From: Torpedo marmorata
Taxonomy: Eukaryota
DNA: 64,000 bases
NCBI GenBank assembly: GCA_977017645.1
Contig: OZ360221.1
Coordinates: 7,812,001-7,876,000, forward strand
Direction of reading: 5' to 3'
Below are positions 668-62,500 of this stretch, piece after piece. Below the pieces are notes generated by a model. That model did not search any database. It had not been told where the DNA came from and saw nothing but the letters and a program-made list of their open reading frames with translations. Within the stretch, counting starts at the first letter, position 1. Each line of letters starts with the position of its first letter. The position numbers and the translations under genes are program-made.

Positions 668-3600
668 GTAAGATGGTTCCTCAGTCGCTCTTTATACAGA
701 CATTCATCTCGTCAGTCAATAAGTATCTTGCTCGGTGTGTGATGGGCGGGGGGGGGGGACGTTCGGTTGATAGAGGTGAGTGTCGATCAGATGGTGGGTG
801 TCCCAGTCCAGAGATAGCGCCTTTGACGATAAAGTTATTTTTCCATTTTTATGGAAGAAAAAGAAAATAGATTAAGAACATTCATCTGGTCGTTTCAATC
901 AACATTACAATTGCCACGATCCATGCAAAATTGAGGTGGATTGCCTGCTTTCTCACGTCTCCACCCTCTGCCATTCCAGTTTACGCGCCTGTGCATGTCC
1001 CTAACCTTTGCAGAAAAACAATCACGTTGAAGATTAACGTAACATGCACCATTATTCAGTGACAGAGGGTATTATCCGAGCAGGTAGTTTCGACATCTCA
1101 TAAACAGCACTTAAGGCAAGACACAGAGAGAACGGCAGAGTTACAGAGAAGGTGGTTACGTGCAAAGGAAACGAAATATTACAATTTTGAGGTGCTTCAG
1201 AGGAATGATAGCGGCAGAAGACATTCTCCCCCTGAGTCGTCGGGAGCTTAATCTTCTTCTCGTGAATTTACAATCTGACGCGAGGGGCCTGACGTTTGGG
1301 CCCAGAAAGGTTAAACAGTTAATGTCTTGGCTGTTTACGGAAGCGGGAGTTAGACATGGAATCAACGAACGGTAGGGTGCTGTATGTGATGGCATGAGCC
1401 GCGTTCACAACCGTCGGCCATACCTAGATGTCTTGGCGGATGAGTGTCCGTACCACACAAAGCATGCACAATGAGAGGATGGTTTAAATCAATTCTCAAT
1501 CTTCCTTCGGGTTACGTCCCCCATGAGTCTATTCAAAATTCATTAGCCCCCTTCCCTGTGAAGCAGTCAAGTATAGTTTTCTTACATACTTCTCTCCTTC
1601 CGACTGCACAACAAACTATGTAAAATATTAACGTTACGATATGAAATGAGAACAAGCCTTTTATTTAAATGTGCCATTGGCTTTCCCAGTATGGTGGGCT
1701 TGGGTGGGGGGTGGGTGGGGAAGGGAGAATGCCCTCTGTTGTGTATGGCTGCTTTAAATCGTGCCCCTGTAAAAAAAGTTTGAAGGGAGATCACAAATTC
1801 CCTCAGGTTTCTAAGGAATTCCATCCGCTGATGGGCTTTACCGGACATGCATATGCGTATGTTGAGCAGGACAGGCAACAAGAGATGTTTATTCCTCGGG
1901 ACATTAATCTCCTAATTGACGAGAACCTCAATCATGAAAACATGCATAAAGGAGCTCCGAGGATTCCCAGCGCAAAGAACTGCACAGGTTTAAATTATAG
2001 GTCCAACCAGTCTTAACTTTATGTCTCTCAAATAAAATAAATTTCAGCCGACGTACAGCAGAATCCGAAATTTAAAGTTGGAAATAAACATTTCGCTCAT
2101 TACAGCGATGCTGTGCGCTATGTTACCAGCTTTGTCCATCCTTCTTCGTGGATTGTGTTCATTATACAGGGGGAAACGTGGCGTTTGGAGGAACGGCGAC
2201 GCAGTCCAGCACCTCTGGCCGTGCCGGCCCTGAAAGAGCCACTGACGGAAACACCGACAACTCCTTACCAAGCGGATCTTGCACGGAGACGAAGAAAACC
2301 AAGGACCCTTGGTGGAGAGTCGACTTACATCAAACCTTTGCCGTGTCAGTGGTGCGAATCAGCAACAGAGGAGACTGTTGTTCCGAACGGCTCAGAGGAG
2401 CCGAAATCCGCATCGGGAATTCGCTGAAGAACAACGGGAATGTAAACAGACTGTAAGTATTCATGTGCAAACACTTGTTTCATTCAGGCTGTACCTGAGA
2501 CATCTCTGACAGTGGTTCAGGAAGTCTCACCAAGGCTGATGCAGAGTCGCCATGCGTGTATAATGACGTATGTAACATCCCTGCTCTTTGCGTTGCTGTA
2601 CTCGATGCCAAACCTCGGCGTCGCTGCTAAACGGAGGACGAACACGGGGCTGGTGCATTGGACCATCCGTGTGAATAAATGATCCAGAACTATGGACCAC
2701 TTATACCGCGGTACAGAAAAACAATCCCAGGACGACAATAGCTAATCCAAGATGCTCTTTGTACCGGGTGAGCGGGTGCTGAGAAGTGAGGGGTAGTTTT
2801 ATTTTTTCAGACAGTGGTGAGACACTGAACACACTCTCCGCGGATGTTGCTGGAGACGTAAAAAATAAGCACAATTTAAAAAAAAAGTATTTGATGGGCT
2901 CATGGATATCAGAGAAATTGAGGGTTATAGACAATGAGGGAAATAAGCACGAGATCGATCATGGAGGCGGTAACAAAAGATTGGTACAACATCGTGCGTA
3001 GAATGCTCGTGTGTGCTACATTAATTCCACAGAGACAGATCTCGTAAAACTACAGAGTGTATGATGCCGGGTACTCACCGTGAGATTCCATCTCTTTCAG
3101 CTGTGGAACCATCCGATCTGCTTCGGCAAGGACGATTACTTTGAATTGCGGTGGATTCACAGGTCGTTATGTAAATATCATCGTCCCGGGTCCTGATAAA
3201 ATTCTTACCCTGTGCGAGGTTCAGGTCTTTGGTTCCAAACTCCCCTCACTGGAAGGTGCAGGTAGGTTCCAATTGCCTCGAAATCATTTGTTGGACACTA
3301 CGTTAGTTATTCAGTCAGTGGAACGTGGGCTGATAGAACCTCGCCAAGTAACAAATGATCACAATCATCGAAGGCGTGTTTAATGTTGTTCCCAGAGAAT
3401 GGTCATACATTCCCGTGCACAGCAAGATGACGTGATACAGAAATGGGAAGAAGCCACTCACCGTAAGATTGGGGTTATGGTTAGGGAGTCACAGTCATTC
3501 ATATCGAGATCCATAATCATTAGTCAAACGTCGCGACGCCTAAACCACAGACATTGCGCACAAACCTATACAGATCACTCGGACATAACGTCAGACAGGG

Positions 3601-6600
3601 CAGTGCACACAAAGCAAAACATGGCATTCTGTGGAGCATGCAGCAGGTAGGGGTCTGATTGAATTGACGATCTGAAATGAGAAATCAGGAAAGCGCATCT
3701 TCATGGATGTATCAAAACCGTCCCTCGCCCATTGTGCCGAATTAACTTTTCACGAGATCTCTTGACATTTAAAAAAATATTTTATTTTTAACTATAGATT
3801 GGTAACAGGCCCTTCCGGCCCACGAGCCCGTGCCGCCCAATTACACCCAATTGACCTACAATCCGCGGTACGTTTTTAAACGGTGGGAGGAAACAGGTGC
3901 CACCGGAGTAAACCCACACAGACACGGGGAGAACGTACAAACTCCGGACAGGCAGTGCCGGATTCGAACGACGGTCGCAGGCAGTGTAACCAGTTGCGTT
4001 AACCACTGCGCTAACCGTGACGCTCCAATCCGTGCAATACATGATGTGAACGGCTTTAGTTGCTCTTTAAAACTTGACCGGCTGCTTGAATGTTTAGCAT
4101 CAGATTTATTCCATGCACCTTTCTGAAAATGTGCCCCCCCCCTCAATAGAAAACGTGGTGCTTGGAGAGTTGAGAAACCCACCATGAGCCATCCTCAATG
4201 AGTTTTTAGGAGAAGTGGAAGAAGAATAAGAGCAAACGATGATGTGAATGATCTTGCTTGTTTATTTAAGTTTGATGAGAGTGCGGCTGCTTGGTCGTTG
4301 GTGTCAAATTGGATCCATGCAGTTTTCTGTTTTCCCACTCAACAGCAAACTTGGCTCTCGGAGCATCTGCGATGCAGTCGAGTACATTTCAGCGAGGTGC
4401 TGCTCAGCGAGCCATTGATGGCAAGAACAGCAGCATCTGGAGTCAAGGTTCCTGCACGCACACCAAGAGAAGCAAGGACCCCTGGTGGCGAGTCGATCTG
4501 AAGGGAATATACAACGTGTCAGTTGTAAGAATCACCAACAGAAGAGACTGCTGCTCCATACGGCTTCAAGGAGCCGAGGTACGAATTGGAAACTCCCTGA
4601 ACAATGCGGGAAATTCCAACAGACTGTAAGTACTCATGAACAAACGCCGGGTCTTATCAGCTATGGCATTGTGCTCTAAAAGTCCCATTGTTGCTGTTAC
4701 GTTTAGGATATTAGGATATAGCGCTAATAGGAAGGGTACTCTAATTTAGTTCGTATAAAAATGTAGAGGAACCTACAGAGTCCTCCATAATGTTTGGGAC
4801 AAATACATGTTTCCTTTATTTGCACCTGTCCTCCACAATTTTAAATTTGTAATGAAACAATTCACATAATTAAAGTTCACCTTCCAAATTTTATTCGAGG
4901 TTATTTGTATACATTTTAGTTTGAACAGTTAGAATTACAGAACTTTTTATGCATAGTCCCCTCATTTAAGGGCACAATAATGTTTGGGACATTTGGCTTC
5001 ACATGTGTTTGTGAGTATTCAGGTATGTTTAATTGCTTCATTGGTGCATGTATAAGTGAGCTATGCTTGCTTCTAAGCTTTTCATCAGCTTTGGAGTCTG
5101 TAGTTGCCAATTTGCAACATGAGGCCCAGGGCTGTGCAAATCGAAGTCAACAAAGCCTTTATGAGGCTGCAAAACAAGAATAAAAAAGTAAGAGACATCG
5201 CCCAAACCTTCGGGTTACCTGAACCAACAGTTTGGAACATTATTGAGAAGAAAGAGCGTACTGATGAGCTCAGTAATCGCAAAGGGATTGGTATTCCAAG
5301 GAAGACCTCCACTGCTGATGGCAGAAGAATTATCATCATAATGAATAAAATTCCCCAAACGTATGTCCAACAGATCATAAACGCGCTTCAGTAGGCAGGT
5401 GTGGACATGTCAATGACTACCGTCCACAGACGTCTTCATGAAAATAAATACAGAGGCCACACTGCAAGATACAACCACGGCAAACGTGGTATGCTTTGGA
5501 TCTTTGGCAGTTCCTTTCCGCCTCCACACTTTGCTCTTGGCATCACTCTGAAACATGTTATTCTTGGTCTCATCTGTCCACAAGACATGTTTCCGGAATT
5601 CTGCAGGCTCTTTTATATACTTCTAGGCAAACTGTAATCTAGCCATCCTTTCTGTGGCTAACTAATGGTTTGCATCTTGCAATGTTACGTCAGTATTTAT
5701 TTTCATGAAGTCGTCTGGAGACATTAGTCATTGACATATCCAGTCCTGCCTCCTGAAGAGTGTTTCTAATCTGTTGGACATAAGGTTGAGGATTTGTCTT
5801 CATTATGATGAGAAATCTTCTGTCATCAGCAGTGGAAGTCTTCCTTGGAATACCAGTTCCTTTACGATTACGGAGTTCACCAGTACGCTCTTTATTCTTA
5901 ATGACGTTCTAAACCTTTGGCGTTGGTAATCCTAAAGTTTGGGCGAAGTCTCTTACTGTTTTAATCTTGTTTGTCAGCCTCACAATGGCTTCTTTGACTT
6001 TCATTGGCACAACTCTGCTCCTCATGTTGAAAAATGGCAACTACAGATTCCAAAGGTGATCAAAAGCTTAGAAGCAAACCTTGCTCTCTTATACCTGCAC
6101 CAATGAAGCAATTGAGCATACCTGAGTAACACAAACACCTGTGAAGCCAAATTTCCCAAACATTATGGTGCCCTGAAATGATGCGTCTACGTATAAAAAG
6201 TGCTATAATTTCTACATGGTCAAACCAAAATATATACAAATAACTTTGAATAAAATCTCGAATGTGCACTTTAATTACATGTGAATTGTTTGATTACATG
6301 TTTAAAACTGCTGAGCACAGGGGCAAATAAAGGAAAAAAGTGCATTTGTCCCAAGCTGAAGAAAGGATTTAGGAAATCTCGAATGGGGCGTGAGAAGGCC
6401 TTGGCATATAGGATTACGGAGAACCCCAAGGCGTTCTATGCATATGTGAAGAACAGAAAGATTATGAGAATGAAGGTGGGACCGCTAAATGATAAAGAAG
6501 GAAACATGTGCCTGGAGGTGGAGGAGGTTGCGGAGGTCGTAAATGAATATTTTGCTTCAGTATTCAGACATTGATCACGGTGAGGTCGGAATAGAGCAGG

Positions 6601-9600
6601 TTTGTGTGCTGGAGAATGTTGAGATTAAGGAAGGGGAAGTGTTGGATCTTCTTAAAAACATTAAGATTGATACGTCCTCGGGGCCGGACGTGATATACCC
6701 CAGGTTTCTATGGGAAGTGAGTGAAGAGATAGCTGGGGCCGTAGCTATGACCTTTGAGTCCTCATCGGCAGCAGTGGAGTTGCCGGGGGATTGGAGAATG
6801 GCAAGTGTAGTCCCCTTGTTTAAAAAAGGTAATAAGGAAAATCCTGGGAATTACAGACCGGTGAATCGTATGTCAGTGGTGTGAAAACTATTGGAGAGGA
6901 TTCTTAAGGATAGGATATATGAGAATTTGGCGAAGTATAGTCCACTCAAGGATAGTCAGCATGGCTTTGCGAAGAGAAGGTCGTGCCTCACGATCCTAAA
7001 TGATTTTTTCGAAAATGTAACAAAATCAATTGATGATAGTAAGGCGGTATATGTGGTCTACATGGATTTTATTAAGGTATTTAACAAGTTCCCCCATGTG
7101 AGACTCGTTCAGAAAGTCTTGAGGCATGGGATCCATGGAACCTTGCCTGTGTGGATAGAAGGTTTGCTTGCAGGTAGAAAGCTGAGAGTTGTAGTGGAAG
7201 GAAAGTATTCTTCCTGGAGGTCAGTGACTACAGGAGTACCGCAAGGATCTGTTCTGGGACCCCTGGCGTTGGTGGATTTATAAATGACCTGGACGAAGAG
7301 GCGGAAGGATGGGTCAGTAATTTTGCGGAGGATATGTTTGTGGAGGAGTTGTGGATGGAGCTGAAGATTGTCGAAGATTGCAAAAGGATATAGACAGGAT
7401 GCAGAGTTGGGCGGAAAAGTGGCAGATGGAGTTCAATCCGGATATGTGTGAGGTGATGCATTTTTCAAGCGGAAACCATAAGGCGGAGTACAGGTTAATG
7501 ACCGGTTACTTCAGGGTGTGGATAAAGAGAGGGACCTTGGGGTCCAAATCCACACATCCCTCCAGGTCGCCGCACAGGTTGACTGGACAGTTAAGAAGGC
7601 CTATGGGATGCTTGGCTTCATTAATAGGGGGATTGAGTTCAATAGAGAGGTCATATAGAGATACTTAAAGTATTGTGTTCAGTTCTGGTCAACTCATTAT
7701 AGGAAGGATGTGGAAGCTATGGAGAGGGTGCAGAGGAGATTTACCAGGATGTTATCTGGATTAGAAAATAAGTTTTATGAGGCAAGGTTAGCAGAGCTGG
7801 GACTTTTCTCTTTGGAGTGTAGAAGGATGAGAGGAGACTTAATAGAGGTCTACAAAATCATGAGATCATAGATAGGAATGACAGCAAGCGCCCGTTTCCC
7901 AGGGCAGGAATAGCAAACACCAGAGGACATGTGTACAAAGTTAAGGGAGGGAAGTTTAGGGGAGACATCAGAGGTAAGTTTTTTACACAGAGAGTTGTGG
8001 GTGCCTGGAATGCCTTGCCAGGTGTGGTGGTGGAGGCTGGAACATTGGGGGCATTTGAGAGACTCCTAGACAGGCACATGGGTGAAATAAAAATAGAGGG
8101 TTACAGGGTTTGGAGGGTTTTTACTTTTTAAAGGAATATATGGGTCGGTATAACATCGAGGGCCGAAGGACCTGTACTGTGCTGTAGTGTTCTATGTTCT
8201 TTGTTCAAGCATTACGGTGGATACTGTATATCTGTGCAGTAGACCTCAAGGATGCATGCTTATCCCATTGCTTTACTCGCTCTACACCCATGATTGCGGG
8301 CTGGGCAGAATTGAAATGCCATCTAAAAATTTTCAGTTGACACCACAGACATCGGCAGAATCACAGATGGATATGAAGAAGCGTATGGGAGTGAGACAGA
8401 TCAGATAGTTGAGTAGTATCACAACAACAACCTTGCACTGAACGTCAGTAAAACAAAGGAACTGTTTGTGGAGGGGAACATCAGGAGAATACAAACCAGT
8501 CATTTTCTAGGGGTCAGCAGTGTAAAGTGTTATGAACGTCCCTTTTCTGGATGTCAACATCTCTGAGCATCTATCCTCGGTCCTTCATGTCAAAGCAATC
8601 ACGAAGAAGGCTCGCCAGCGGTGGTTCTTCGTGATGAATTTGAGGAGACTTGGTCTGTCAGCAAAGACTCTTGCAAATTTCTACAGGTGTACCGTATGGA
8701 GCATTTTGACTGGTTGCACCCATGTGTGGTATTGAGGTGCCAATGCAGAGGACAGGAAAATACTGCAGAGAGTTGTGAAACCGGCCAGCACCATCATGGG
8801 CACCAGTCGTCAATCCATCGAGGACATCTACAAGAGGCGGTATCTTAAGAAAGCAGCCTCTATCCTCACCACCCAGGCCATGCTGTCTTAACACTGCTAC
8901 CATCCGTAAGGAGGTACAGGAGCCTGAAGACAAACAACTAACGGTACAAAAACAGGTTCTTCCCCCCGGCATCGCATTTCTGAATGGGCAATGAATCACA
9001 GACACTACCTCACTTTATTGTATTTTGGACCAATTTATTTAATTTTTAAACGTAATTGATAGCAATATTTGTACCTGTAATGCTGCAGCAAAACAAACAT
9101 TTTCGTGACGTGTTCATGACAATAAATTCTGCTTCTAATTCCTTTGATGATCCATATAGTTTGAGAAATGGGAGACCAAATCTCCAGAAATGAAGTCTCC
9201 AGCACTTCGTAGGAAATGCTCACAATGTGGTTCGATGCACTCCAGACTCGGACGTCATGCAGATGCTAGCTTCTCACCGTGAAATCTTCATCTCTTTCAG
9301 CTGTGGAACAGTGCATGCAGTTTCCGGAACGACGTTTACATTCAGTTGCGTTGGTATAACGGGTCGATATGTGAATATCATCATCCCAGGCTGGAGCAAA
9401 ATCCTGACCCTGTGCGAGGTCGAGGTCTTTGGGTCGAAGTTCCCAGAGAAAGGACATGCAGGTAAGATGGGTCCTCAGGCGCTCTTTACACACATGTTCA
9501 TATCATTAGTCAGGAAGCATCTTGCTCGCTGTGTGGTGGTGGTATGTTCGCTTGATAGAGGTGAGTGTCGATCACATTGTGGGCTTTCCAGTCCAGAGAT

Positions 9601-11513
9601 AACGCCTTTGGCGCGAAAGTACATTTCCATCATCATGGAAGTAAAAAGAAAATAGATGAAGAGTCTTTATCTGGTCGTTCCCATCAACATTACAATTCCG
9701 AAAATCCCTGCGCAGAGCGGCAGGCCTGCAAAATGGAGGCGGAATGCCTGTTTTCTCTCGTCTCGACCCTCTGCCACTTCCATTTGCGCGCCACGTGCAT
9801 GGCCCAAACCTTTGCATAAAGCAATCACGTAGAAGATTACTGTCAAATGTACCATGGTTCAGTGACAGTTTAGACATCTCATGAAGACACAGAGAGAACT
9901 GTAGAGTTACAGAGAAGGTGGTTGCGTGCAAAGGAAATGTAATATTACAATTGGAGGTACTTTCAGAGGCATGATAGCGGCGGAACAATTCTCCCCTTGA
10001 GTCGGCTTGCGCCTGATCTCCTTCTCGTTAATTTACTTTCTGAGCTCGGGGCATGAAGCCTAGGTCCAGAAGAGAGCAGACTGTTTATGAGTTGGCTGTT
10101 TCTTACAGCAACGGGAGTTATAACTGGATCCAAATAAACGGTAGCGGCCTCTCTGTAACGGCCTTAGCTGCGTTCACAACCCTGGGACGTTTTGGACGTC
10201 TTGGCGGTTGGCGGATGAGTGTCCGAACTACACAAAATGGACACGGAGAGGTTGGTTTCTCAATCTCTCTCTCGGCTCTGTCACCCCAGATCTCTGGTCA
10301 AATGTTTTCCGCCCCCTTCCCTGTGAAGCAGCCAAGTTTTGATTTCTTCAGTACTTCTCTCCTTCTGACTACATTGAAAAAAAAAAACAGAAAAAGATTT
10401 CACGTTACGTGAGGTGAAAATAAAACAAGAGTTTTACGTAAATGTGTTGTGGCCCCCGGGCGGGGACAAGGGTGCTCATTCTCTCTGTTGAGTACAGCTG
10501 CTTTAATTCGTGCCCTGTAAAAGGGGTGAAGGTAAGATAACAAATTCCATCAGACTGCTAAGGGAGTATGGACGCTGATGGGCTTTGCCGGACATGCAGG
10601 TGCATGCGTTGAGCAGGAAAGATCACTAGAGATGTTTATCGCTCGGGACATAAATATCCAAATTGATCAGAACGTGCGAAATCATGACAACATGATGGAA
10701 CTGCAAGGAGTCCGAGCGCAAAGACCAGCAAAGGCTCAAAGTGCAGGTGCAACAAGGAATAACTTCCTTTCTCGCACACATCCAATGAAGTACATTGCAG
10801 ACGCTAAACGGCAGTGCCCGAACACTCAATGATGGGAATACATTTTGTAATTCATTACAGCGATGCTGTGTGCTATGCCAACAACGTTATCCATCCCTCT
10901 TCGTGGATTATTTTCATTATACAGGGGGAAACGTGGCGTTGGGAGGAACAGCGACTCAGTCCAGCACTTCTGGCCGTGCCGGCGCTGAACGAGCTACTGA
11001 CGACAACACGGACAACTCCTTACCTCGGGGATCTTGCACGGAGACCAAGAAAACCAAGGACCCTTGGTGGAGAGTCGACCTGCACCAAACCTATGCCGTG
11101 TCAGTGGTGCGAATCAGCAACAGAGGAGACTGTTGTTCGGAACGGCTCCGAGGTGCCGAGATCCGCATCGGGAATTCGCTGAAGAACAATGGGAATTCAA
11201 ACCGACTGTAAGTATTCATGAGCAAACACTTGTTCTCTTCACGGTGCGCCTAAGAAAACTCTGACGGTGGTTCGGGAAGTCTCACCACGGCTGATGCACC
11301 GAAGCCAATGGTGTAATAATGAAGTCTGTTGCATCCCTCCTCTTGGCGTTGCATGTACAAAGCAAAACCTCGGCGTCACTGCTGAAGGGAGGGCGAACAA
11401 GGAGCTTGTACATTGACCAGCCATGTGGATCAATGATCCACAAGTATGGACCAGTCATCCGGAGGCACAGAATAACAATTCAAAGGCGACAGAAGCCAAT
11501 GCAAGATGACATT

Positions 11514-11576
<63 letters not shown>

Positions 11577-14500
11577 GTGTTTAATTTAGACGTATAGCAC
11601 GGTAACAGGCCCTTTAGGCTCACGAGCCCGTGCCGCCCAATTACACTCAATTAACCTACAATCCCCGGTACGTTTTTCTGAACACTGGTAAGAACTCGGA
11701 GGCCCCTGGAAAACCCCACGCAGACACGGGGAGAACTTACAAACTCCTTACAGACAGCGCCGGATTCGAACTCGTTCCCGGTTGCTGGCGCTGTAGCAGT
11801 GTTTCGCCAACCGCTATTCCAACCTTGACGCCCCGAGCGGGGAACGTGTTTTCTGAGAAGTCAGAGGTCGTTTAATTTATTTAGATAGTTGTGCGTCCCT
11901 GCAATACACTGTCCGCGGATGTTGTTGGAGACTTATGAAATACGGACAATTGAAAAAAGGTCTTTGTTAGGCTCATGGATGTCAGAGAAATGGAGGGTTA
12001 TAGATTGTGAGGGAAATAAACACTCGATCGATTATGGAGGCGGTAACAAAAGATTGGTACAACATCGTGCGGAGAATGCTTGTCCGTGCTACATTAATTC
12101 CAGAATAGTAGATGCCGCCAACTAACCGCGAGATTCCATCTCTTTCAGCTGTGGAACCGTCCGATCGGCTTCGGCAAGGACGCTTACTTTCAGTTGCGGT
12201 GGATTTACGGGTCGTTATGTGAATATCATCATCCCGGGTCTTGATAAAATTCTTACCCTGTGCGAGGTTCAGGTCTTTGGTTCCAAACTCCCGTCACTGG
12301 AAGGTGCAGGTAGGTTCCAATGGCCTCGAGAACATTTGTTGTATACTTAGCTATTTTGTCAGTGGATCGTCCGCGGATAGAACGTCGCTGCGCAGCAAAT
12401 GATTCACACAAATTGAAGGATATTTTGCGTTACTGCCAGAGAAGGGCAATGCATACTTGTGCACCGCAAGATGACACTGAGGCAGAAATGGGAAGACATA
12501 AGTCAGCATAGAGATGTGAGTGGGGCCACATCAATTTATATCTAGACCCTTAATCATTGGACAAAACTCGCGACGCCAATACCACAGACTTCATGCAGAA
12601 ACCGACACAGATCACCCGGACAGAACGTCAGACAGGGCAGTGCGCACAAAGCAAAACATGGCATCATGTGCAGCACGTAGCAAGAAGGGATGTGATAGAA
12701 TTGATGGTCTGTAGAAGTAAAACAGGAAATACCATCCTCATGGATATATCAAACGGTTCCCCCATTGTGATCAGCGGATCAGAATATTATTCATTTAAAT
12801 GGAAAGAGAATTCAGTATGCTGCCGCGCAGTAGGACTTGGGAGTGCTTGTGCATGAATCACAAAAACGTTGGTTTCCAGGTGCAGTAGGCTATCAAGAAG
12901 GCAAATGGAATGTTGGCCTTCATATCTAGAGGGATTGAGTTTAAGAGCAGGGAGGTTATACCGCAACTGTACGCGGTACTGGTGAGGCTGCATCTGGAGT
13001 ATTGTGTGCAGTTATGGTCTTCTTACTTGAGGAAGGATGTACTTGCTTTGGAGGCGGTACAGAGGAGGTTCACCAGGTTGAGGAGTGATTGAGTCTTATG
13101 GGAATGTACTCGCTGGAATGTAAAAGAGTGAGAGTAGATCTTATAGAAACGTATAAAACTATGAAAGGCCGAGATAAGATAGAGGTAGGTATGTTTTTTT
13201 CCATTTGTAGAGGAGACAAGAACTCGGGGACATCGTATCAAGGTCCAGAGTAGTAGACCAAGGACGGAGATGAGGAGGAACTGCTTCTCCCAGAGGGTGG
13301 TGAATCTGTGGAAATCGCTGCCTATTGAAGGAGTGGAAGCGATAGCAGTAAATACATAGCAAGGGAATTAAGTGATATGAGATAAAGGCAAATAGGTAGA
13401 GAAGAGCCTATCATCAAATCAACCATGATCTTATTGAATGGCTCAACAGGCTCTACAGGTCGGATGGCCGACTCCTGCTCCTATTGTTTATCTTCTCATT
13501 GTGCCGTGATGACATACCATGAGAACACTTGAGATTTAGACAGAGTCCAGGAACAATCCTTACAATAGGTGGTGGGAATGGTTTTACTTGCTCATTCAAA
13601 TATGAACGGCTGTTTGGCGATTTAGCATCAGATGTACTCCGTGAACGTTACTGAACATTTGTCACCCGACATAAAATTTTACTTTAGGGGCATTGGCCTC
13701 CCAGTCGAGTACTAATCACCAGGCAGGAGCCCAGCGAGCTCGAGAGGAGTGGGCGAAGCAGATTATGGCAATCAGCTGCTTATTTATTCAAGGGAGAGGG
13801 GAGTGCAGTTGCATCGCGGTTTGTCATTATACTTACACCATACAGTTCACTGAATTCATCCTACCTAACAGAAAACGTGGCGCTGCGAGCATCGGCCATT
13901 CAATCGAGCACTGATCACCAGGCAGGAGCCCAGCGAGCCATTGATGGCAACAGCAACAGCACCTGGCGGCAAGGTTCCTGCTCGCAAACCAAGAAAAGCA
14001 AGAGCCCGTGGTGGCGAGTCGATCTGAAGGGAACCTACAATGTGTCAGTTGTTAGAATCACCAACAGAAGAGACTGCTGCTCGGAGTGGCTGCAAGGAGC
14101 CGAAGTTCGCATTGGGAATTCGCTGAAGAACCATGGAAACTCCAACAGGCTGTATGTATTCAGCTGCAAACGCCAGCACTTCTTGGTTGCGTCTACTGCT
14201 CTGGAAGTTCAGTTTTTGCTGTTGCATTATATAACCATATAACCATATAACATTTACAGCACTGAAACAAGCCAGGTCGGCCCTTCGAGGCCATGCCGAA
14301 CACATTCTCCCACCTAGTCCAGCTGACTCGCACCCGGCCCATAACCCTCCACGCCTCTCTCGTCCATATACCTATCCAACTTTTCCTTAAACATTAAAAT
14401 TGAACCTGCATCTACCACTTCGGCCGGAAGCTCGTTCCACCCTCCTACCACCCTCTGAGTGAAAATAATCCCCCTCAGGTTTCCTTTAAACTTTTCCCCC

Positions 14501-50500: not shown

Positions 50501-53500
50501 ATATAAAGTACAGTGTGAGACCTGCTGAGTTCTCCAGCCTTGTGTTTTTTACTGGAGAAGATGGGAAGTGACATCATCGATCATCTTTTCCTTTCAATTC
50601 TTCCTCTGGAACGAGCTTCACTGCTCCTTGCTCAATAGGGTTTGCTTTACCTTCCAGGAAAGAACGTGGCGTTGGGATCCAGGTCCACGCAGTCCAGCAC
50701 TTCCGGTCGAGCTGGGGCTGAGCGTGCCACTGATGGCAACAAAGACAACTCCTGTACACAGACTAAGAAAAGCAACGGCCCTTGGTGGAGAGTCGACCTA
50801 AATGAAACCTACGCTGTGTCAGCCGTACGAATCAGCACCAGAACAGACTGCTGCTCCGAATGGCTCCTGGGAGCCGAAATCCGCATCGGAAATTCGTTGC
50901 ACAACAAAGGGAATTCCAACAGACTGTAAGTGTTGAACGGCGAATACCGGCACTCTTTCATCTGTATCTCGTGAAGCACTGTGTATGATTTTGAGAGTTT
51001 CAATATTCCCGAAGCCCTGTCGTAACTGTGTAGAACTGCGGACTGCTGCGTCTTTTATTTAAACACTTAACTCCAATCGAGACACGAAGAAATTCTAACC
51101 TTTATATTAACCACTTTTAAAGACAAGATATAGATAAAAGTTCCGCACATGTTAACCACAGATTGGCAGCTATAGTGGACCAAAGGTCCTGGTCACTAAA
51201 CCATTGTTGGTAGTTTCACCGCTCATTCAAACACTATAAACGGCGGCTGATTGGAGGCGACAGTTGAAAGGAAGAGTAATTTTGCATGAACCTACATCTC
51301 TGAATCAATGAGGTCTTCTTGTTATAGACATCACCAAGTGATCAATGCGGACACATAAACAGGGCGTGCATACTCGCCCATAATTGTGCAGTGCTCGAGA
51401 CTATTCTTGACTTTGCATCTCAACATGTGGCAAAGGTGATTGAATTTAAAGCAATTGTATAATCTTACAATGTTTGATTATAACATGCTGATTGTTACGT
51501 TCGATGGGCCGCAAATTACAGGCTGTGCTGCCATTGTTCACTCGCACCGTATTTCAGAAAATTGTGGAGCTCGAGATGCTTCCTAATCACTGTGCGTTCC
51601 ATGTCTTTCAGCTGTGGTACCGTCAAATCCGTTTCTGCATCGACACTTACTTTCAGTTGTGGTGGATTTACGGGTCGATATGTGAATATCGTCGTCCCGG
51701 GTCCTGGTAGAATCCTGACCCTGTGCGAGGTTCAGGTCGTTGGTTCCAAACTCCCCTCATTGGATGGAGAAGGTAGGTTTCGAATGTCCCCTGAGGTTCT
51801 TGTTGTTTACACCCTCATCTTTTCAGTTCCATTAGTTTCAGTTGATGCAATCTCGGCAGGCATCAATTGATTCGATGCCAATAGAAACACATTACTATTG
51901 CATTCATTGATGTACAGAGGTACAGGATCTAAGAGCAGGCATGTGATTATGAGGCTTTATATCGCTCTGGTGAGACCTCACTTGGATCAGAGGGGTACAG
52001 ATTTGTGTTCCTTGTTTATGAAAGTGTGGGATGACATTGAAATGGTTCAGAGAAGCTTTACAGGGATGAATCCTGGAATGAAGAGATCAGTAGACGAGGA
52101 ACATTATATTTGCTCTTAGACTATACTCATTGTAATTCAAAAGAATGAGGGGTTCCTCACAGACGTACTTCGTGCGTTGTACGGCCTGAACAGCGTAGAT
52201 GTATCTACGTTTTTTGCCATTTTATGGGAATCAAAGAAAAGTGGGAAACATTCAATCAGATGGGCACTTATTTGAAACAGATATGCGGACGAATTTATTC
52301 AACCAATCACTGTCGAACTTCAGGAATTTTCTGCCACGGTCGGCTGTGGAGGCCCGGTTGTTTGGTGTATCTGACTAGTCAAGGTTTCAAAGGTTATGGG
52401 GAGAAGGCACAGGATTGGGCTGAGTGGGAGAATGGACCAGCGAATGATGGAAGGCGGTGCGGAATGGAGGGGCCGAGCGGCCTTCTACTGCTCCGATATC
52501 GTATGTTCCTACGATCATATTGTTTAAGAACTGATCTCGGGGTCACGAGCACTGGTAAACCCGAGACATAGAAAGCAGCCGATGCTGGAATCTGACGCTG
52601 GACACAATCCGCTGGAAGAACTCAGCGGGTCACGAGGCTTGAGCTGATGAATAAGAATGGTCCACGGTAAGTTCCGGAACCATTCTTCAAGACAGCGACG
52701 CGTTTTGATTAAATGTTGCCCCACAAAACTCGAATATTCTTTCCACCACTGATTCCGCTCCACGCGTTGAGTTCCTTCAGCAGATTCTGCTTCACTTAGG
52801 TAAACCCTGCTTTAAATCCGGGGCACCAAAACAATTGACCTAATACACCTACACAGAGAAGCAGTTTGGCGATGAACCCCAGTAAGGGGCAGCGCCTAGT
52901 AGATGAAATTCTATAAGAAAACGAGAATGTGGAAGGTAGCGATAAGCCGGCCTCACCATCGTGATGATCGCTGCAGGGAAATGAGAAGATCGCAGCCTTA
53001 GTGAAAGATCAAAAATATTCCACCATCTCTGGCATTAGCGTCCAATGCGGCCATGTTTAGATTGATTATGGTTTCCGGTTTTAATTATGTCGCACTCACG
53101 TGACCTGCTCGCCCGGATTCTGAACTGGTGTCTTTTGAATAGACACCTGCAGTCCCGAGTGTTCCTCATCAGAACCAAGCACGTTGCAAAGAGCGCGATC
53201 TTCACCATGCTCACTGTCCAGATAATTTCCTCGAAATTATACCGCCGCGATACATGACGAGAGAGTTCAGAATCACATCCTGCCATTCTAAATGAGTTAT
53301 TACGTTGCGTGGAAGACAATTCGGCGCTAACGATGATGGGAATGATCTAGCTGGTTTATTTAAGTTTGATGAGAGTGCGGCTGCTTCGTCGTTGGAGTCA
53401 AATTGGATCCATGCAGTTCTCTGTTTGCCCACTCAACAGAAAACGTGGCTCTCGGAGCATCTGCGATGCAGTCGAGTACATTTCAGCGAGGTGCTGCTCA

Positions 53501-56500
53501 ACGAGCCATTGATGGCAAGAACAGTAGCACCTGGTGGCAAGGGTCCTGCACGCACACCAAGAGAAGCAATGACCCTTGGTGGCGAGTCGATCTAAAGGGA
53601 ATATACAACGTGTCAGTTGTGCGAATTACAAACAGAAGAGACTGCTGCTCCAAACGGCTCCAAGGAGCCGAAATACGAATTGGAAACTCCGTGTACAACG
53701 AGGGGAATTCCAACAGTCTGTAAGTACTCATGAACAAATGCCGGGTCTTCTCAGTGTTGCTGTTACGTTGAAGACAAATATGAGTGGATGTCGTGCTCAC
53801 AGGATCGGGTACAGTAACTTAGTTCATGTCTGACTGTGGAGGAAAATATATCTTTGCAGTAAACAGCCAATGATGAGGGGAATAATTCCAGAACGGGAGA
53901 CCACATCTACAGTAATGAAGTCTGCAGCACTTGTCAGGAAATGCTCACGATGTGGTTCGATGTGCTGCAGATGCTGCTTTCTCACCGTTAAACCTTCATC
54001 TCTTTCAGCTGTGGAATCCTACATGCAGATTCCGGAACGAAGTTCATATTCAGTTGCGTTGGCTTCACGGGTCGATTTGTGAACATTATCATCCCAGGAC
54101 GGAGTAAAATCCTGACCCTGTGTGAGGTCGAGGTGTTCGGTTCTGAACTCCCGTCATTCGAACATGCAGGTAGGTGAAGTCCTTGTTGCGTTACTCGCTG
54201 CACAAACGCTCACAGCCTCAGTCTAATAATCGTTTTTGAGGACGTTTGGTTAGTCGATGTATATGGAGGTTACATGTTGTGGCCGACTGTGCACAGTGAT
54301 GATCAGTGGAGTGAAACGATAAGTTCACTCCCTTATCGACGTAAAACTACAGAGATGAAAACCAACATGAGTGGGCGACATTGAGTGAGATTTCCTGTAA
54401 GGCTTCTCTTCGCACACTGTAATTTTTTAAAAGTTAAATTTAGATATACAGATGTACATCACGATAACAGGCCATTTCAGCCCACGATTCCGTGCCGCCA
54501 AATTTACACCTCAGTAAACTACACCCCCGGTACGTTTTGAACGGTGGGCGGAAACCGGAGACCCTGGAGATAACACACGCAGACAGGGGGAGAACGGACA
54601 AACATCTTACAGACAGCGCGGGATTCGTTCCCCTGTCTGGGCCCGATCGCTGGCGCTGTAAAGGCGTTGCGCTGACCGCTACGCCAAATGTGCAGCCCAC
54701 AAACTATTTAACTTCATTCTGGACACCACCAGACTAAGCGCTTTTACAAGAGCATGGACAGCCGCCACTGTTCACCGACAAGACGAGACCGGTTTGGGCT
54801 CAGGACTCGCGGATCCCCATATCGAAGCACAAAGCTTCCATCTATTTCAGCTACTGGACTAGCTGCCAACATATTTCTGGAAAACACCAAGACCCGTAGA
54901 ATTCGATCTTTAAAGGCATGCGCCGTTGGAGTCTGTCGGACGTGTACTGTTGAATACCTAGTTTGGGTGTTGTGAATAGAGATCAAGTGGAGAGGCGAGT
55001 AAAACAGGGCATCATTCATCTTATATCGTCCATGTCCGCCAACTCTCCGAACGATCGGCAGGCCGGCAAATTACCCGAACACCTCTCATTCCCTGTTCGA
55101 TGTGCACCATCATAATATACCAGAGGAACTGCATCGCTTTTGGCAACAACGACCTTAGTCCCAGCGCTATTGCCATGCCCACGTCGTTGTCCAGATATTC
55201 ACTTTCATTCTAAATGGGTTACGTGGATTCCCACTGCAAGGAAATCACCCACCGAACGGGAAGTCAATCAGGAAAAGTGTGAAGTGATGCATGTTGCAGG
55301 GCCATACTTGAAGGAAGAGTATATGGTGGATATCAGGATTCTCAATTGTGCAGAGGAGCAGAGGTACCTTAGGTACAAATCCTCAGATCTTTAAAGGTTC
55401 CCGCGGGGGTGGGGTAAATAAAAAAACCTAATGGTATACTTCTCTTCATTAGTCGGGGGATTGCACCTCAATTGTCGTGAGTTGATTTTTCAGATCTATA
55501 AAATTGTGGCATGAGAACACCTGGACAATTGATTTCAGGTCTGGTTGCAAGAAGAATGTAGAAGCAACGGCGAACTTTCAGAAGCCATTTAACAGGATGT
55601 TGCCTTGTTTAGAGTACAAAATTAACAAAGCAATGGACTTTCTGTTTGGAGCCAATGAGGATGATGGTTGACAGTAGAGGTCTGCAGGTTTAAGGAAGGA
55701 ATAGATCGGGTGGACATACTCCACCTTACCACGGGGGCAAGAGTATTAAACATGAGGAAACATCACATCAAGGTGAAGGGAGGAACGTTTAGGGGATATG
55801 TTAGGCGTACGTGGTTTAAAAAGAGAGTAGTGGTGGCCGAGTGTGGTGTAGAAATACAATACAATATGGATATTTATAAGACTCTCCGAGAAGCACATGG
55901 ATATAAAGAATAGACAGTCATAGGTGTGACGTAGGTAAATTTAGTTTGTTCATGTTTATCTATTGGTCGGCGCTAAATCCTGGGCCTCAGGGCCTCTAAT
56001 GTTCCGTAGTATCCTATGTTCGGTGAATTTATAGATCGAGCAATTCTTTGTTTCCAGTTCTCATACGTGTCCAATCAATATATATTTTAAAGGAAGAAAC
56101 TGCAAGGTCTGAACTCTGGATGATGGGAAAGAACTTGTTTAATTATTTTTCCTTTTAATACTCCCTCTGGAACTTGCTTCATCGCTTCTCTCTCAGTCCG
56201 ATTTGATTTCACCTGTCAGGAAACAACGTGGCGTTGGGATCCAGCACCACGCAGTCCAGCACTTCTGGTCGAGCAGGGGCTGAGCGAGCCACCGACGGCA
56301 TCAAAGACAACTCCTGTACACAGACTAAGAAAACAAGTGACCCTTGGTGGAGAGTCGACTTAAATGAAACCTACGCTGTGTCGGCCGTACGAATCAGCAC
56401 CAGAAGAGACTGCTGCTCCGAATGGCTCCTGGGAGCCCAGATCCGCATCGGAAATTCGTTGCACAACAACGGGAATTCAAACAGACTGTAAGTGTTCAAC

Positions 56501-59500
56501 GCGAATACCGGCACTCTTTCGTCTGTATCTCGTGAAACGCTGTGCATCGTTTCGAGTGTTTCATTATTCCCGAAGCCCTGTCGTAACTGTGCAGAACTGC
56601 GGACTGCTGCATCTTTTATTCGAGCCCGTATATTAACCACTGTTAAAGAGAAGATATAGATAAATGATCCACATATGTTAACAACAGATTCGCAGCTACA
56701 GTGGACTAAAGGTGTATTTCACTAACCCATTGTTGTGTGTTTCACCACTTATTCAAACTCGTTAAACGGTGGAGGATTGGAGGTGTCAGTTGAAAGGAAG
56801 AGTAATTTTGCATAAAACGTCATCTCTGAAACAATCAGTTCTTCCTATTATAGGCATTACCACGTGATCAATGAGGACACATAAACAGGGCGTGCATACT
56901 CGCCCATAGTTGTGCAGTGCTTGAGAATATTCTTGCGTTTGCATCTTAACTTGGGGCAAAGGCGATTGAATTTAAAGCAATTGTATTATCTTAAAATGTT
57001 TGATTGTTACGTTCGATGGGCAGCAAATTATAGGCTGTGCTGCCATTGTTCACTCGTACCGTATTTCAGAAAATTGTGGAGCTGTAGATGCTTCCTAATC
57101 ACTGTGCGTTCCATGTCTTTCAGCTGTGGTACCGTCAAATCCGTGTCTGCATCGACACTTACTTTCAGTTGTGGTGGATTTACGGGTCGATATGTGAATA
57201 TCATCGTCCCGGGTCCTGGTAGAATCCTGACCCTGTGCGAGGTTCAGGTCTTTGGTTCCAAACTCCCCTCATTGGATGGAGAAGGTAGGTTTCGAATGTC
57301 CCCTGAGGTTCTTGTTGTTTACAGCCTCATCGTTTCAGTTCCATTAGATTCAGTTGATGCGATCTCGGCAGGCATCATTGATTCGATGCCAATAGAAACA
57401 CATTTCTATTGCATTCATTGATGTACAGAGATACAGGATCTAAGAGCAGGGATGTGATTATGAGGCTTTATATCGCACTGGTGAGACCTCGCTTGGATCA
57501 GAGGGGTACAGATTTGTGTTCCTTGTTTATGAAAGTGTGGGATGACATTGAAATGGTTCAGAGAAGCTTTACAGGGATGATTCCTGGAATGAAGAAATCA
57601 GTAGACGAGGAACATTATATTTGCTCTTGGACTATACTCATTGCAATTCAGAAGAATGAGGGGTTCCTCACAGAAGTACTTCGGGCGTTGTACGGCCTGA
57701 ACAGCGTCGATGTAGCTACGTTTTTTGCCATTTTAAGGGAGTCAAGGAAATGTGGGAAGAACCTTAGGCTGATGGGCGCCTATTTGAAACAGATATGCGG
57801 ACGAATTTATTCAACCAATGATTGTCGAACCTCAGGAATTTTCTGGCACGGTCGGCTGTGGAGGCCCGGTCGTTGGGTGCATGTAAGGCAAACCTTGATG
57901 TGTATCTGACTAGTTAGGGTGTCAAAGGTTATGGGGTGAAGGCACAGGATTGGGCTGAGTGGAAGAATAGATTAGCGAATGATGGAAGGCGGTGCGGAAT
58001 CGAGGGGCCGGTCGGCCTTATTCTGCTCCGATATCGTATGTTCCTACGATCATATTGTTAAAGAACTGATCTCGGGGTCACGAGCATTGGTAAACCCGAG
58101 ACATAGAAAGCAGCCGATGCTGGAATCTGACGCTAGACACAATCTGCTGGAAGAACTCTGCGGGTCACGAGGCTTGAGCTGATGAATCAGAATGGTCCAC
58201 GGTAGGTTCCGGAACCATTCTTCAAGACAGCGACGCGTTTTGATTAAATGTTGCCCCACAAAACTCGAACATTCTTTCCACCACTGATTCCTCTCCACGC
58301 GTTGAGTTCCTTCAGCAGATTCTGCTTCGCTTCGGTAAACCCTGCTTTAAATCCGCGGCACCAAAACAATTGACCCTATACACCTACACACAGCAGCTGT
58401 TTTTCGATGAACTCCATTAAGGGGCAGCTCCTTGCAGATGAAATGATTTAAGGAACTGAGAATGTGGAAGGCAGCGATAAGCCGGCCTCACCATCGTGAT
58501 GATCGCTGCAGGGAAATGAGAAGATCGCAGCCATAGTGAAAGAACAAAAATATTCCACCATCTCTGGCAATAGCGTCCATGCGGCCATATTTAGATTGAT
58601 TATGGTTTCCGGTTTTTATTATGTCGCACTCACGTGACCTGCTCGCCCGGATTCTGAACTGGTGTCTTTTGAATAGACACCTGCAGTCCAGAGTCTTCCT
58701 TATCAGAACCAAGCACGTTGCAAAGAGCGCGATCTTCACCATGCTCATTGTCCAGATAATTTCCTCGAAATTATACCGCCGCGATACATGACGAGAGAGT
58801 TCAGAATCACATCCAGCCATTCCAAATGAGTTATTACGTTGCGTGGAAGACTATTCAGCGCTAACGATGATGGGAATGATCTAGCTGGTTTATTTAAGTT
58901 TTTAGTGAGAGTGTGGCTGCTTGGTCGTTGGAGTCAAATTGGATCCATGCAGTTTTCTGTTTCCCCACTCAACAGCAAACGTGGCTATCGGAGCATCTGC
59001 GATGCAGTCGAGTACATTTCAGCGAGGTGCTGCTCAGAGAGCCATTGATGGCAAGAGCAGCAGCATCTGGAGGGAAGGTTCCTGCACGCACACCAAGAGA
59101 AGCAAGGACCCCTGGTGGCGAGTCGATCTGAAGGGAATATACAACGTGTCAGTTGTAAGGATCACCAACAGAAGAGACTGCTGCTCCAAACGGATCCAAG
59201 GAGCCGAAATACGAATTGGAAACTCCGTGTACAACGAGGGGAATTCCAACAGTCTGTAAGTACTCATGAACAAATTCCGGGTCTTTTCAGTGTTGAGGTT
59301 GTGTTCTGAAAGTTCCATCGTTTCTGTTACGTTGAAGACAAATATGAGTGGATATAGTGATACCAGGATCGGGTAAAGTAACTTACGTCGTGTCTGAGCG
59401 TGGAGAAAAATATATCTTTGCAGTAGACTGCTAATGATGAGGGGAATAATTCCAGAAAGGGAGACCACATCTACAGTAATGAAGTCTACAGCACTTGTCA

Positions 59501-62500
59501 GGAAATGCTCACGATGTGGTTCGATGTGCTGCAGATGCTGCTTTCTCACCGTTAAAGCTTTATCTCTTTCAGCTGTGGTATCGTACATGCAGATTCCGGA
59601 ACGAAGTTCATATTTAGTTGCGTTGGCTTCACGGGTCGATTTGTGAACATTATCATCCCCGGCCGGAGTAAAATCCTGACCCTGTGCGAGGTCGAGGTGT
59701 TCGGTTATGAACTCCCGACTTTCGAACATGCAGGTAGGTGAAGTCCTTTCTGCGTTACTCGCTGCACAAACGCTCACGTCCTCAGTCTAATAATCGTTTT
59801 TGAGGACGTTTGGTTAGTCGATGTATATGGAGGTTACATGTTGTGGCCGACTGTGCACAGTGATGATCAGTGGTGTGAAACGATTAGTGCACTCCCTTAT
59901 CGACGTAAAACAACAGAGATGAAAACCAACATGAGTGGGCGACATTGAGTGAGATTTCCCGTAAGGCTTCTCTTCGCACACTGTATTTTTTAAAAATTTA
60001 AATTTAGATATACAGACATACATCACAGTAACAGGCCATTTCAGCCCACGATTCCGTGCCGCCAAATTTACACCGCAGTAACCTACACCCCCGGTACGTT
60101 TTGAATGGTGGGAGGAAACCGGAGCACCTGGAGAAAACCCACGCAGACAGGTGGAGAACGTACAAACTTCTTACAGTCAGCGCGGGATTCGGTCTCCTGT
60201 CTGGGCCCGATCGCTGGCGCTGTAAAGACGTTGCGCTGACCGCTACGCCAACTGTGCAGCCCACAAACCCTTTAACGTCCTCCTGGACACCACCAGACTA
60301 AGCGCTTTGACAAGAGCATGGACAGCCGCCACTGTTCACTGACAAGACGAGACCGGTTTGGCTCAGGACTCGGGGATCCCCATATAGAAGCACAAAGCTT
60401 CCATCTATTTCAGCTACTGGACTAGCTGCCAACATATTTCTGGAAAACACCACGACCCGTAGAATTCGATCTTTAAAGGCATGCGCCGTTGGAGTCTGTA
60501 GGACTGTATTGTTGAATACCTTGGGTGGGTGATGTGAATAGAGATCAAGTGGAGAGGAGAGTAAAAGAGGGCATCATTCATCTTATATCGTCCATGTCCG
60601 CCAATTCTCCGAACGATCGGCAGGCCGGCAAATTACCCGAACACCTCTCATTCCCTGTTGTTCGATGTGCACCATCATAATATACAAGAGGCACTGCATC
60701 GCTTTTGGCAACAACGACCTTAGTCCCAGCGCTATTGTCATGCCCACGTCTTTGTCCAGATATTCACCTTTATTCTAAATGAGTTACAAAGGAAAATCAC
60801 CCACCGAACGGGAAGTCAATCAGGAAAAGTGTGAAGTGATGCATGTTGCAGGGCCATACTTGAAGGAAGAGTATATGGTGGATATCAGGATTCTCAATTG
60901 TGCAGAGGAGCAGAGGTACCTTAGGTACAAATCCTCAGATCTTTAAAGGTTCCCGCGGGGGTGGGGTAAATAAAAAAGCCTAATGGTATACTTCTCTTCA
61001 TTGGTCGGGGGATTGCACCTCAATTGTCGTGAGTTGATTGTTCAGATCTATAAAACTGTGGCATGACCACACCTGGACAATTGATTTCAGGTCTGGTTGC
61101 AAGAAGAATGTAGAAGCAACGGCGAACTTTCAGAAGCCATTTACCAGGATGTTGCCTTGTTTAGAGTACAAGATGAACAAAGCAATGGACTTTCTGTTTG
61201 GAGCCAATGAGGATGATGGTTGACAGTAGAGGTCTGCAGGTTTAAGGAAGGAATAGATCGGGTGGACATACTCCACCTTACCACGGGGGCAAGAGTATTA
61301 AACATGAGGAAACATCACTTCAAGGTGAAGGAGGAAAGTTTAGGGGATATGTTAGGCGTAAGTGTTTTAAAAAGAGAGTAGTGCGGGCCGAGTGTGGTGT
61401 AGAAATACAATACAATATGGATATTTATAAGACTCTCCGAGAGGCATCTGGATATAAAGAATAGACAGTTATGGGTGTAACGTAGGTAAAGTTTAGTTTG
61501 TTGATGTTTGTCTATTGGTCGGCGCTAAATCCTGGGCCTCAGGGCCTCTAATGTTCCGTAGTATCCTATGTTCGGTGAATTTATAGATCGAGCAATTCTT
61601 TGTTTCCAGTTCTCATACGTGTCCAATCAATATGTATTTTAAAGGAAGAAACTGCAAGGTCTGAACTCTGGGTGATGGGAAATAACTTGTTCAATTATTT
61701 TTCATTTTAATACTCCCTCTGGAACTTGCTTCATCGCTTCTCTCTCAGTCCGATTTGATTTCACCTGACAGGAAACAACGTGGCGTTGGGATCCAGCACC
61801 ACGCAGTCCAGCACTTCTGGTCGAGCAGGGGCTGAGCGAGCCACCGACGGCATCAAAGACAACTCCTGTACACAGACTAAGAAAACAAGTGACCCTTGGT
61901 GGAGAGTCGACTTAAATGAAACCTACGCTGTGTCAGCCGTACGAATCAGCACCAGAAGAGACTGCTGCACCGAATGGCTCCTGGGAGCCCAGATCCGCAT
62001 CGGAAATTCGTTGCACAACAACGGGAATTCAAACAGACTGTAAGTGTTCAACGCGAATACCGGCACTCTTTCCTCTTTATCTCGTGAAGCACTGTGCATG
62101 GTTTGGTGTGTTTGGTTATTCCCGAAGCCCTGTCGTAACTGTGCAGAACTGCGGACTGCTGCGTCTTTTATTTTACCCCCCAACACCAATCGAGACACGA
62201 TGAAATTAGAGTCCGTATATTAACCACTGTTAAACAGAAGATATAGATAAATGATCCACATATGTTAACCACAGATTCGCAGCTACAGTGGACTAAAGGT
62301 GTATGTCACTAACCCATTGATGTGTGTTTCACCACTTATTCAAACTCGTTAAACGGTGGAGGATTGGAGGTGTCAGTTGAAAGGAAGAGTAATTTTGCAT
62401 GAAACGTCATCTCTGTAACAATCAGTTCTTCTTATTATAGGCATTACCAAGTGATCAATGCGGACACATAAACAGGGCGTGCATACTCGCCCATAGTTGT

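Follow-up and report, generated by a model that had tools for sequence, protein, structure and literature searches.

A predicted 50-domain F-type lectin gene of Torpedo marmorata with alternating motif-intact and motif-less domains

In the available text of two reviews, F-type lectins of one to five domains are described, tandem domains are said to depart at times from the sugar-binding motif, with specificity changed or lost, and no role is stated for such motif-departing domains in animals (PMC5712786; PMC12221842). The roles of the triad His52/Arg79/Arg86 and of the calcium ligands were taken from the Anguilla anguilla agglutinin (AAA; PDB entry 1K12), as given in the accessible part of PMC5712786; the fucose-binding motif of the family is His...R-x-D-x4-(R/K), in which 26 residues separate His52 from Arg79 in AAA and the reviews print X24. 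AAA consists of one domain and gains its valency through trimers and hexamers. Morone saxatilis MsaFBP32 (MsFTL1; PDB entry 3CQO) has two unlike tandem domains, each split by an intron; the triad is present in both, and both bind fucose. Motif-intact and motif-less domains stand mixed or in alternation in the tandem arrays of frog pentraxin-fusion proteins of the Xla-PXN-FBPL type and in predicted arrays of Scomber (P0122), Sander (P0121), Notamacropus (P0123), Rhinoraja (P0002) and Pristiophorus (P0001). Here, a stretch of 64 000 nucleotides of Torpedo marmorata DNA (the window; contig OZ360221.1, termed C5, positions 7812001–7876000) was analysed, which carries part of an F-type lectin gene that, unlike AAA, would build its valency into one chain.

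The array seen in the window continues far past both of its ends, and the contig was examined from 7.58 to 8.04 Mb. In this region 50 consecutive F-type lectin domains follow one another in frame, from position 7,679,818 to a stop at 7,983,117, and the window holds domains d21–d37 (A1–A17) of the run. Each domain is laid out in two exons, A (268–283 nt) and B (161 nt), with outer borders in phase 1; the linkers between domains are short, with a fixed length of 10 or 11 residues. A signal exon of 67 nt lies 5' of the 50 domains at 7,674,404 and, joined to the 100 domain exons, gives 7,339 amino acids (791 kDa) with a single, terminal stop; this falls inside the B exon of d50 and is followed 250 nt further on by AATAAA. 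AG was present at 100 of 100 acceptors and GT at 99 of 99 internal donors. No pentraxin or other second domain type follows the F-type repeats, the frame stopping within the d50 B exon. Homology comparison and a de novo scan of the array introns, both of limited sensitivity, revealed no further signal exon; the scan retrieved only the 5' one. The introns reach 25 kb and the large ones are 58–100% covered by sequence repeated elsewhere in the DNA examined. All domain classes are basic (isoelectric point 9.1–9.9). The 50 domains likely form one secreted protein of ∼790 kDa, the single giant transcript being a predicted gene model; such a 50-domain, 790-kDa lectin would be the most unusual feature of the locus and is invisible from the window alone.

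Family membership was assessed on window exons: A6 matched 3CQO, the best PDB match, with E = 9e-51 and 1K12 with E = 4e-21, A9 matched them with 4e-36 and 3e-16, and the PF00754 and PF22633 cut-offs were passed by all four A exons tested. Judged by homology, cysteines and calcium motif, the product is an F-type lectin, of a known kind and notable mainly for its size.

The window contains 17 A exons on the plus strand between 2170 and 62039. As the first-pass annotation had reported, the motif H-x26-R-x-D-x4-R together with AIDG is carried by the even exons A2, A6, A8, A10, A12, A14 and A16 (motif-intact, Y), and the His is absent from all nine odd exons (motif-less, X), being Glu in A1 and A3 and Gln in A5–A17, with Trp in place of the second Arg in all six odd exons of A7–A17. 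Two of its finer statements stood in part: the Trp is general in the late odd exons, but the exact string CCSEWL occurs in four of the six (A9 reads CCSDWL and A17 CCTEWL), and the EVEV/EVQV alternation of the B exons is unbroken (18 of 18, B0–B17), but B0 and B2 end in AHA and GHA rather than in EH(A/E/T). The alternation is real, with the motif in seven of eight even exons and no His in any of the nine odd ones, but it is imperfect and breaks at A4 (13872–14151). This exon, omitted from the first-pass annotation, is even and comes with AIDG and a B exon of EVEV type, yet carries Gln52 and Trp86; A3, A4 and A5 are three consecutive motif-less domains. The motif state switches in 14 of the 16 neighbour pairs of the window. 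For the whole gene the string is xxYxxYxYxYxYxYxYxYxYxYxxxYxYxYxYxYxYxYxYxYxYxYxxxx (Y, intact; x, motif-less). The motif is thereby intact in 21 of 50 domains (d3 and 20 Y; seven of 17 in the window) and absent from the other 29; 42 of 49 neighbour pairs switch, alternating runs are 19 and 23 domains long, YY pairs do not occur and four motif-less domains stand at the C-terminus. When motif states were shuffled, at least 14 switches arose in the window in 177 of 100,000 trials, and 42 switches in the whole gene in none of 100,000. As duplicated units call for a null other than shuffling, the result shows order, not selection for order.

A quick protein tree of the repeats (65 rows), supported by the Shimodaira–Hasegawa-like approximate likelihood-ratio test (SH-aLRT) only, separated a Y clade of 20 domains (SH-aLRT 99) from an X clade of 23 (96; odd d5–d47 and d48), as had been predicted from the window. 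Motif state does not always match lineage: the motif-less d24 (A4) is sister to Y (91), and the motif-intact d3 to X (82). Lineage parity is unbroken across d5–d47. Both clades are split by block into 5' (Y5, X1) and 3' (Y3, X2) groups. In the 5' block the YX unit of four exons is mostly 5.6 kb in length and neighbours are 95.7–99.8% identical, introns included (99.2–99.8% for units u10–u14); in the 3' block the units are 4.0–8.6 kb and 79–95% identical, and across d22–d26 unit similarity drops to 72–79%. In d24 the A exon has that of d4 as its nearest relative, and the B exon and flanks are Y-like; d24–d25 therefore looks like an older joint between two bursts. A remnant of an A-exon start lies out of context at 13684–13740, ∼190 nt upstream of A4, with d4 and d24 as its nearest relatives, and is a trace of rearrangement between the blocks. 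Unequal crossing-over pairs the most similar sequences. Within the array, protein identity between adjacent domains (lag 1) is 63%, against 93% between every second domain (lag 2), and the alternation likely follows from this alone, since unequal crossing-over would here move two domains at a time.

All 20 Y domains keep His52/Arg79/Arg86, the vicinal Cys pair and Trp45, and their Arg86 codon varies only silently (CGG, CGT, CGA). Y shares with AAA the triad, Cys82–Cys83, Asp38, Ser49, Cys146 and Glu147; relative to AAA, its complementarity-determining region 1 (CDR1) is shorter and lacks His27, and the Arg41 partner of Glu149 is missing. In CDR1 length and in the Trp at position 45, Y resembles the C-domain of MsaFBP32. 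Among the 22 odd domains of d5–d47, none has His52 and all keep Arg79, Asp81 and Cys82–Cys83; 11 also have Trp86 and are without the Phe45/Tyr46 loop. In the window this is seen in odd exons A7–A17, from which five CDR2 residues, including the equivalents of Phe45 and Tyr46, are gone, a deletion missed in the first-pass annotation. The X pockets are thus of two kinds, Glu52/Leu45/Arg86 (X1) and Gln52/deletion/Trp86 (X2). The change of Arg86 to Trp is one CpG transition (CGG to TGG) and recurs in d24, X2, d47, d48 and d50. As read from these residues, Y domains likely bind fucose, and X domains likely bind none at the usual site. Calcium ligands are retained almost throughout (Asp38 and Ser49 in 49 of 50 domains each, Cys146 in 50, Glu147 in 48, with Asp in d39 and d49), and the cation motif h2DGx is present, its second hydrophobic residue being mostly Thr in X; calcium binding would be less sure in X2, whose loop is shortened. 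Cysteines equivalent to the disulfides Cys50–Cys146, Cys82–Cys83 and Cys108–Cys124 number six in every Y5, X1 and X2 domain and six or seven in Y3. The EVEV/EVQV switch maps to Glu149, in AAA a salt-bridge residue with Arg41 as its partner (accessible part of PMC5712786); a change of the calcium site was rejected as its meaning, the ligand being Glu147 and the partner Arg41 being absent from both classes. Across separate lineages (d3, d49 and all Y) His52 goes with Lys85 and Trp45: Lys85 is found in 21 of 22 His-bearing domains (Ile in A2) and Glu or Asp at 85 in all 28 without His. N-glycosylation sequons lie near residue 56 in Y (20 of 20; for example, exon 25654–25933) and at residue 48 in X2 (10 of 10), and X1 has none.

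X domains, for which the first-pass annotation had proposed possible functions, are not neutral. Codon models gave a ratio of nonsynonymous to synonymous rates (omega) of 0.27 for Y (n = 20) and 0.31 for X (n = 22; 0.29 for d7–d45), with neutrality rejected for both (p < 1e-18) and p = 0.73 in a test of equal omega. By block, omega was 0.29 (Y5), 0.26 (X1), 0.26 (Y3) and 0.40 (X2), and pairwise counts agreed. Frameshifting indels were absent from the X1 and X2 exons (3,548 and 3,846 aligned bases), and the intron flanks had 25 and 27 in ∼7,200–7,300 bases, a rate from which ∼12 (X1) and ∼14 (X2) would be expected in the exons. In each of the 22 X domains the frame is open and none of the four splice sites is lost, with donor scores equal to or above those of Y. 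Ratios of nonsynonymous to synonymous differences (pN/pS) were 0.21–0.38 in the array versus 0.73 in detached inverted copies (Y 0.84; X 0.54 on 29 changes). Owing to the low omega, the lack of frameshifts and the decay of the detached copies, the array X domains are considered to be translated and constrained. Relaxed selection specific to the X binding face was examined and rejected (omega of face and rest 0.18/0.22 for X1–X2 and 0.39/0.36 within X2, on few sites in both cases).

Homologues were compared as a set of 145 proteins with 701 domains (120 listed of 248 matches plus 25 from a second search; hits under 100 amino acids dropped), with alignment-based calls. The triad was present in 362 domains and absent from 339, and 76 of the 145 proteins were mixed; in 16 batoid proteins it was present in four of 50 domains and absent from 46. 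Entirely motif-less arrays occur in Rhinoraja (9/9), Sander (18/18) and Notamacropus (18/18), and with whole proteins of motif-less domains in other vertebrates the earlier label `motif-dead' for X is overstated. The pikeperch protein (Sander P0121) has Val/Ile at His52 and, together with that of the tammar wallaby (Notamacropus P0123), makes motif-less arrays look like a recurring class. Alternating runs elsewhere comprise 11 of 20 domains in mackerel (Scomber) and up to seven in a frog, frog arrays ranging from xxYxY up to xYxYxYxx. Period-2 similarity is common among long arrays and is also seen in proteins with the triad in most of their domains (Xenopus P0008, Megalops P0007, Dissostichus P0017, Macrostomum P0126). 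In contrast to the frog and other long vertebrate arrays, which are database predictions of at most 20 domains, the present gene has 50 and no pentraxin; in contrast to MsaFBP32, one of its pair is without the triad and the pair is repeated ∼20 times. The largest homologous array among the 145 proteins has 20 domains, proteins of 2,001–2,587 and more than 5,000 amino acids having been outside the search, so that larger ones may exist; within the comparison set the domain count is 2.5 times that of any other F-type lectin found. If the single-transcript model is true, the lectin is unusually large. A structure model of the two-domain Narcine homologue P0087 (58–60% identical to A9; predicted local distance difference test score, pLDDT, 80; predicted template-modelling score, pTM, 0.52) had 3CQO as its top match (E = 1.2e-35, TM 0.57, r.m.s.d. 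6.2 Å), which confirms the fold for the homologue without a fixed domain orientation. A literature search, outside which most subscription papers lay, brought up nothing published on this gene or on F-type arrays that are long and alternate. A fragment of an F-type domain protein is reported from catshark skin mucus in the available text of PMC10707392, which may hint, weakly, at a site of action.

The reading that we regard as probable is that d21–d37 belong to a likely single secreted protein in which Y domains likely bind fucose and X domains likely fold without binding it at the usual site, the alternation having arisen by duplication of a YX cassette. Unequal crossing-over would pair like with like, so that the array would grow by two domains per step and keep its parity without selection on spacing; amplification would have taken place in two bursts, d6–d23 and d26–d46, around the older joint d24–d25. 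With ∼21 fucose sites on one long, basic chain, the multivalent product would cross-link glycans that carry fucose, likely as part of the defence in mucus or plasma, and X domains would be retained as working modules of the chain. For these modules the binding of another ligand is put at close to an even chance, a structural role only is possible though somewhat further from even, and weak residual fucose binding appears improbable. The different ligand proposed in the first-pass annotation is thus a live option, with ranaspumin-4 (galactose/lactose) and bryohealin (N-acetylglucosamine/N-acetylgalactosamine; both from the available text of PMC12221842) as reported precedents for an altered motif with another sugar. 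The spacer that sets the distance between fucose sites is unsupported as it was put: a two-domain duplication unit yields alternation mechanically, and the alternation breaks at A4. As the duplication unit accounts for the alternation, that pattern by itself holds modest interest. The array does provide a matched natural set of 20 motif-intact and 22 motif-less domains of two kinds, ∼63% identical and under equal purifying selection, with decaying orphans as a control. Such a set makes the role of motif-less F-type domains directly testable; roughly half of the homologous domains in the comparison, and 46 of 50 in batoids, are of this sort.

Several points weigh against this reading. The single 50-domain product is a prediction from a gene model built on DNA. 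The strongly different pockets of X1 and X2 argue against one conserved alternative ligand, and X2 is perhaps somewhat relaxed (0.40; Y3 at 0.26 versus X2, p = 0.097). The intron indel expectation is inflated because neighbour pairs overlap and homopolymer runs are counted, gene conversion breaks the tree model on which omega is based and weakens all tree-based figures, and the repeat tree is the product of a quick search without bootstrap. The orphan control consists mostly of Y exons, its three X orphans being stop-free with the pN/pS of 0.54 given above on 29 changes. Finally, each domain is a module that preserves the frame, yet YY pairs are absent from all 50, as selection for alternation would also predict. 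Such selection would have produced a zig-zag chain with fucose sites on one face and X on the other, that is, a two-faced or fixed-pitch lectin, which corresponds to the spacer or packing model of the first-pass annotation. The unbroken parity of d5–d47, the short fixed linkers, 14 positions diagnostic of X or Y (several of them outside the sugar pocket) and the recurrence of alternation in mackerel and frogs are consistent with it, as are the two binding sites of MsaFBP32, which face opposite ways in the available text of PMC12221842. We nevertheless consider selected alternation rather unlikely: the duplication unit gives the same pattern without selection on order, three motif-less domains in a row at A3–A5 and four at the C-terminus are tolerated, period-2 arrays exist with both positions intact and others with no intact site, and the Narcine model fixes no orientation. 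Its fullest form, a two-faced polymer of 7,300 residues with ∼20 fucose sites on one side and ∼22 selected non-fucose sites of two kinds on the other, bridging two glycan surfaces (microbe and host mucus), is more doubtful still.

It also seems unlikely that the domains never form one protein, being instead expressed as several shorter transcripts or as splice forms of variable length like oyster bindin, whose F-type domain number varies (accessible part of PMC5712786), with the 5' block partly copy-number polymorphic or mis-assembled. Any number of the two-exon modules could be skipped in frame, introns reach 25 kb, units u10–u14 are nearly identical and no homologue among the 145 exceeds 20 domains; against this, the analysis found only a single signal exon and a single final exon with a stop, the large introns are mostly repeat-covered, and unit lengths and sequences differ, as in real copies. 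Least credible, and as far as decay is concerned largely refuted by the codon analysis, is that X domains are decaying passengers of duplication or are routinely spliced out. The recurrent CpG transition at Arg86 and the highest omega of the four groups in X2 would fit decay, but neutrality is rejected at an omega of 0.29–0.31, splice sites and frames are intact in 22 of 22 domains with donors at least as strong as in Y, and all 19 X1 and X2 domains keep six cysteines.

Returning to the window, where all exons are on the plus strand, the first to appear is B0 (507–667), the second exon of d20, a Y-type domain whose A exon lies 1 kb upstream of the window. It is followed by A1 (d21; 2170–2452), of X1 type with Glu52, Arg79, Arg86 and Leu45, and B1 (EVQV; 3101–3261), by A2 (d22; 4346–4625), a Y exon with His52, Arg79, Arg86 and Trp45, and B2 (EVEV; 9301–9461), and by A3 (d23; 10925–11207), an X1 exon with Glu52 in which Asp replaces the Gly of the calcium motif, and B3 (EVQV; 12149–12309). 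The exceptional A4, of even lineage, is completed by the Y-like B4 (EVEV; 22311–22471). The A4–B4 intron (14152–22310) is AT-rich, 8.2 kb in length with a GC content down to 27%, and contains minus-strand remnants of long interspersed nuclear elements (LINEs), namely a frame of 769 amino acids with endonuclease and reverse transcriptase matches at 18820–21129 and a second reverse transcriptase piece at 15055–15711. A gene boundary at A4 was rejected, as this long gap sits between the A and B exons of the same domain and holds the LINE remnants. A5 (d25; 23727–24009) is of X lineage with Gln52, Arg86 and a full CDR2 and is paired with B5 (EVQV; 24670–24830), and the 3' block starts at A6 (d26, Y; 25654–25933) with B6 (EVEV; 27076–27236). 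From here X2 exons, of which A7 (d27; 29154–29421) shows Gln52, Trp86 and the CDR2 deletion of five residues and is joined to B7 (EVQV; 30112–30272), alternate with Y exons: A8 (d28, Y; 32296–32575) and B8 (EVEV; 32908–33068), A9 (d29, X2; 33524–33791) and B9 (EVQV; 34484–34644), A10 (d30, Y; 36299–36578) and B10 (EVEV; 36901–37061), A11 (d31, X2; 42113–42380) and B11 (EVQV; 43066–43226), A12 (d32, Y; 44887–45166) and B12 (EVEV; 45489–45649), A13 (d33, X2; 50658–50925) and B13 (EVQV; 51612–51772), A14 (d34, Y; 53440–53719) and B14 (EVEV; 54009–54169), A15 (d35, X2; 56220–56487) and B15 (EVQV; 57124–57284), A16 (d36, Y; 58976–59255) and B16 (EVEV; 59573–59733), and A17 (d37, X2; 61772–62039) and B17 (EVQV; 62725–62885). 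Two introns of 5 kb each, 37062–42112 and 45650–50657, belong to a recent duplication of an 8.6-kb unit (u30/u32), the two units being 91% identical over their full length; the introns contain several unassigned long frames.

A search of the 6.2-Gb assembly with exon A2 gave 91 matches, all on the same contig and 88 of them within 7.60–8.85 Mb, which delimits an F-type lectin cluster. Among the matches listed, the closest homologues with a name belong to skates, rays and a sawshark, and Narcine proteins resemble both the last domain of the array and a signal exon of the cluster. The detached copies used above represent parts of the 3' end of the array in inverted orientation and lie 0.6–0.75 Mb downstream on the minus strand (contig 8588563–8729505; L044–L058). 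They comprise 18 exons (six Y and three X domains) with two stops and three broken donors, and are likely pseudogene fragments from a segmental duplication; a change of Asp81 to Tyr is common to four of the six Y copies. Further short F-type lectin genes are present at 8.06–8.84 Mb (L061–L080), with mixed triad states (HRR, QRR, ERR, RRQ and QRA). They stand in mirrored pairs: the region 8.16–8.22 Mb (minus strand) resembles 8.78–8.84 Mb (plus strand), and 8.062 Mb matches 8.634 Mb.

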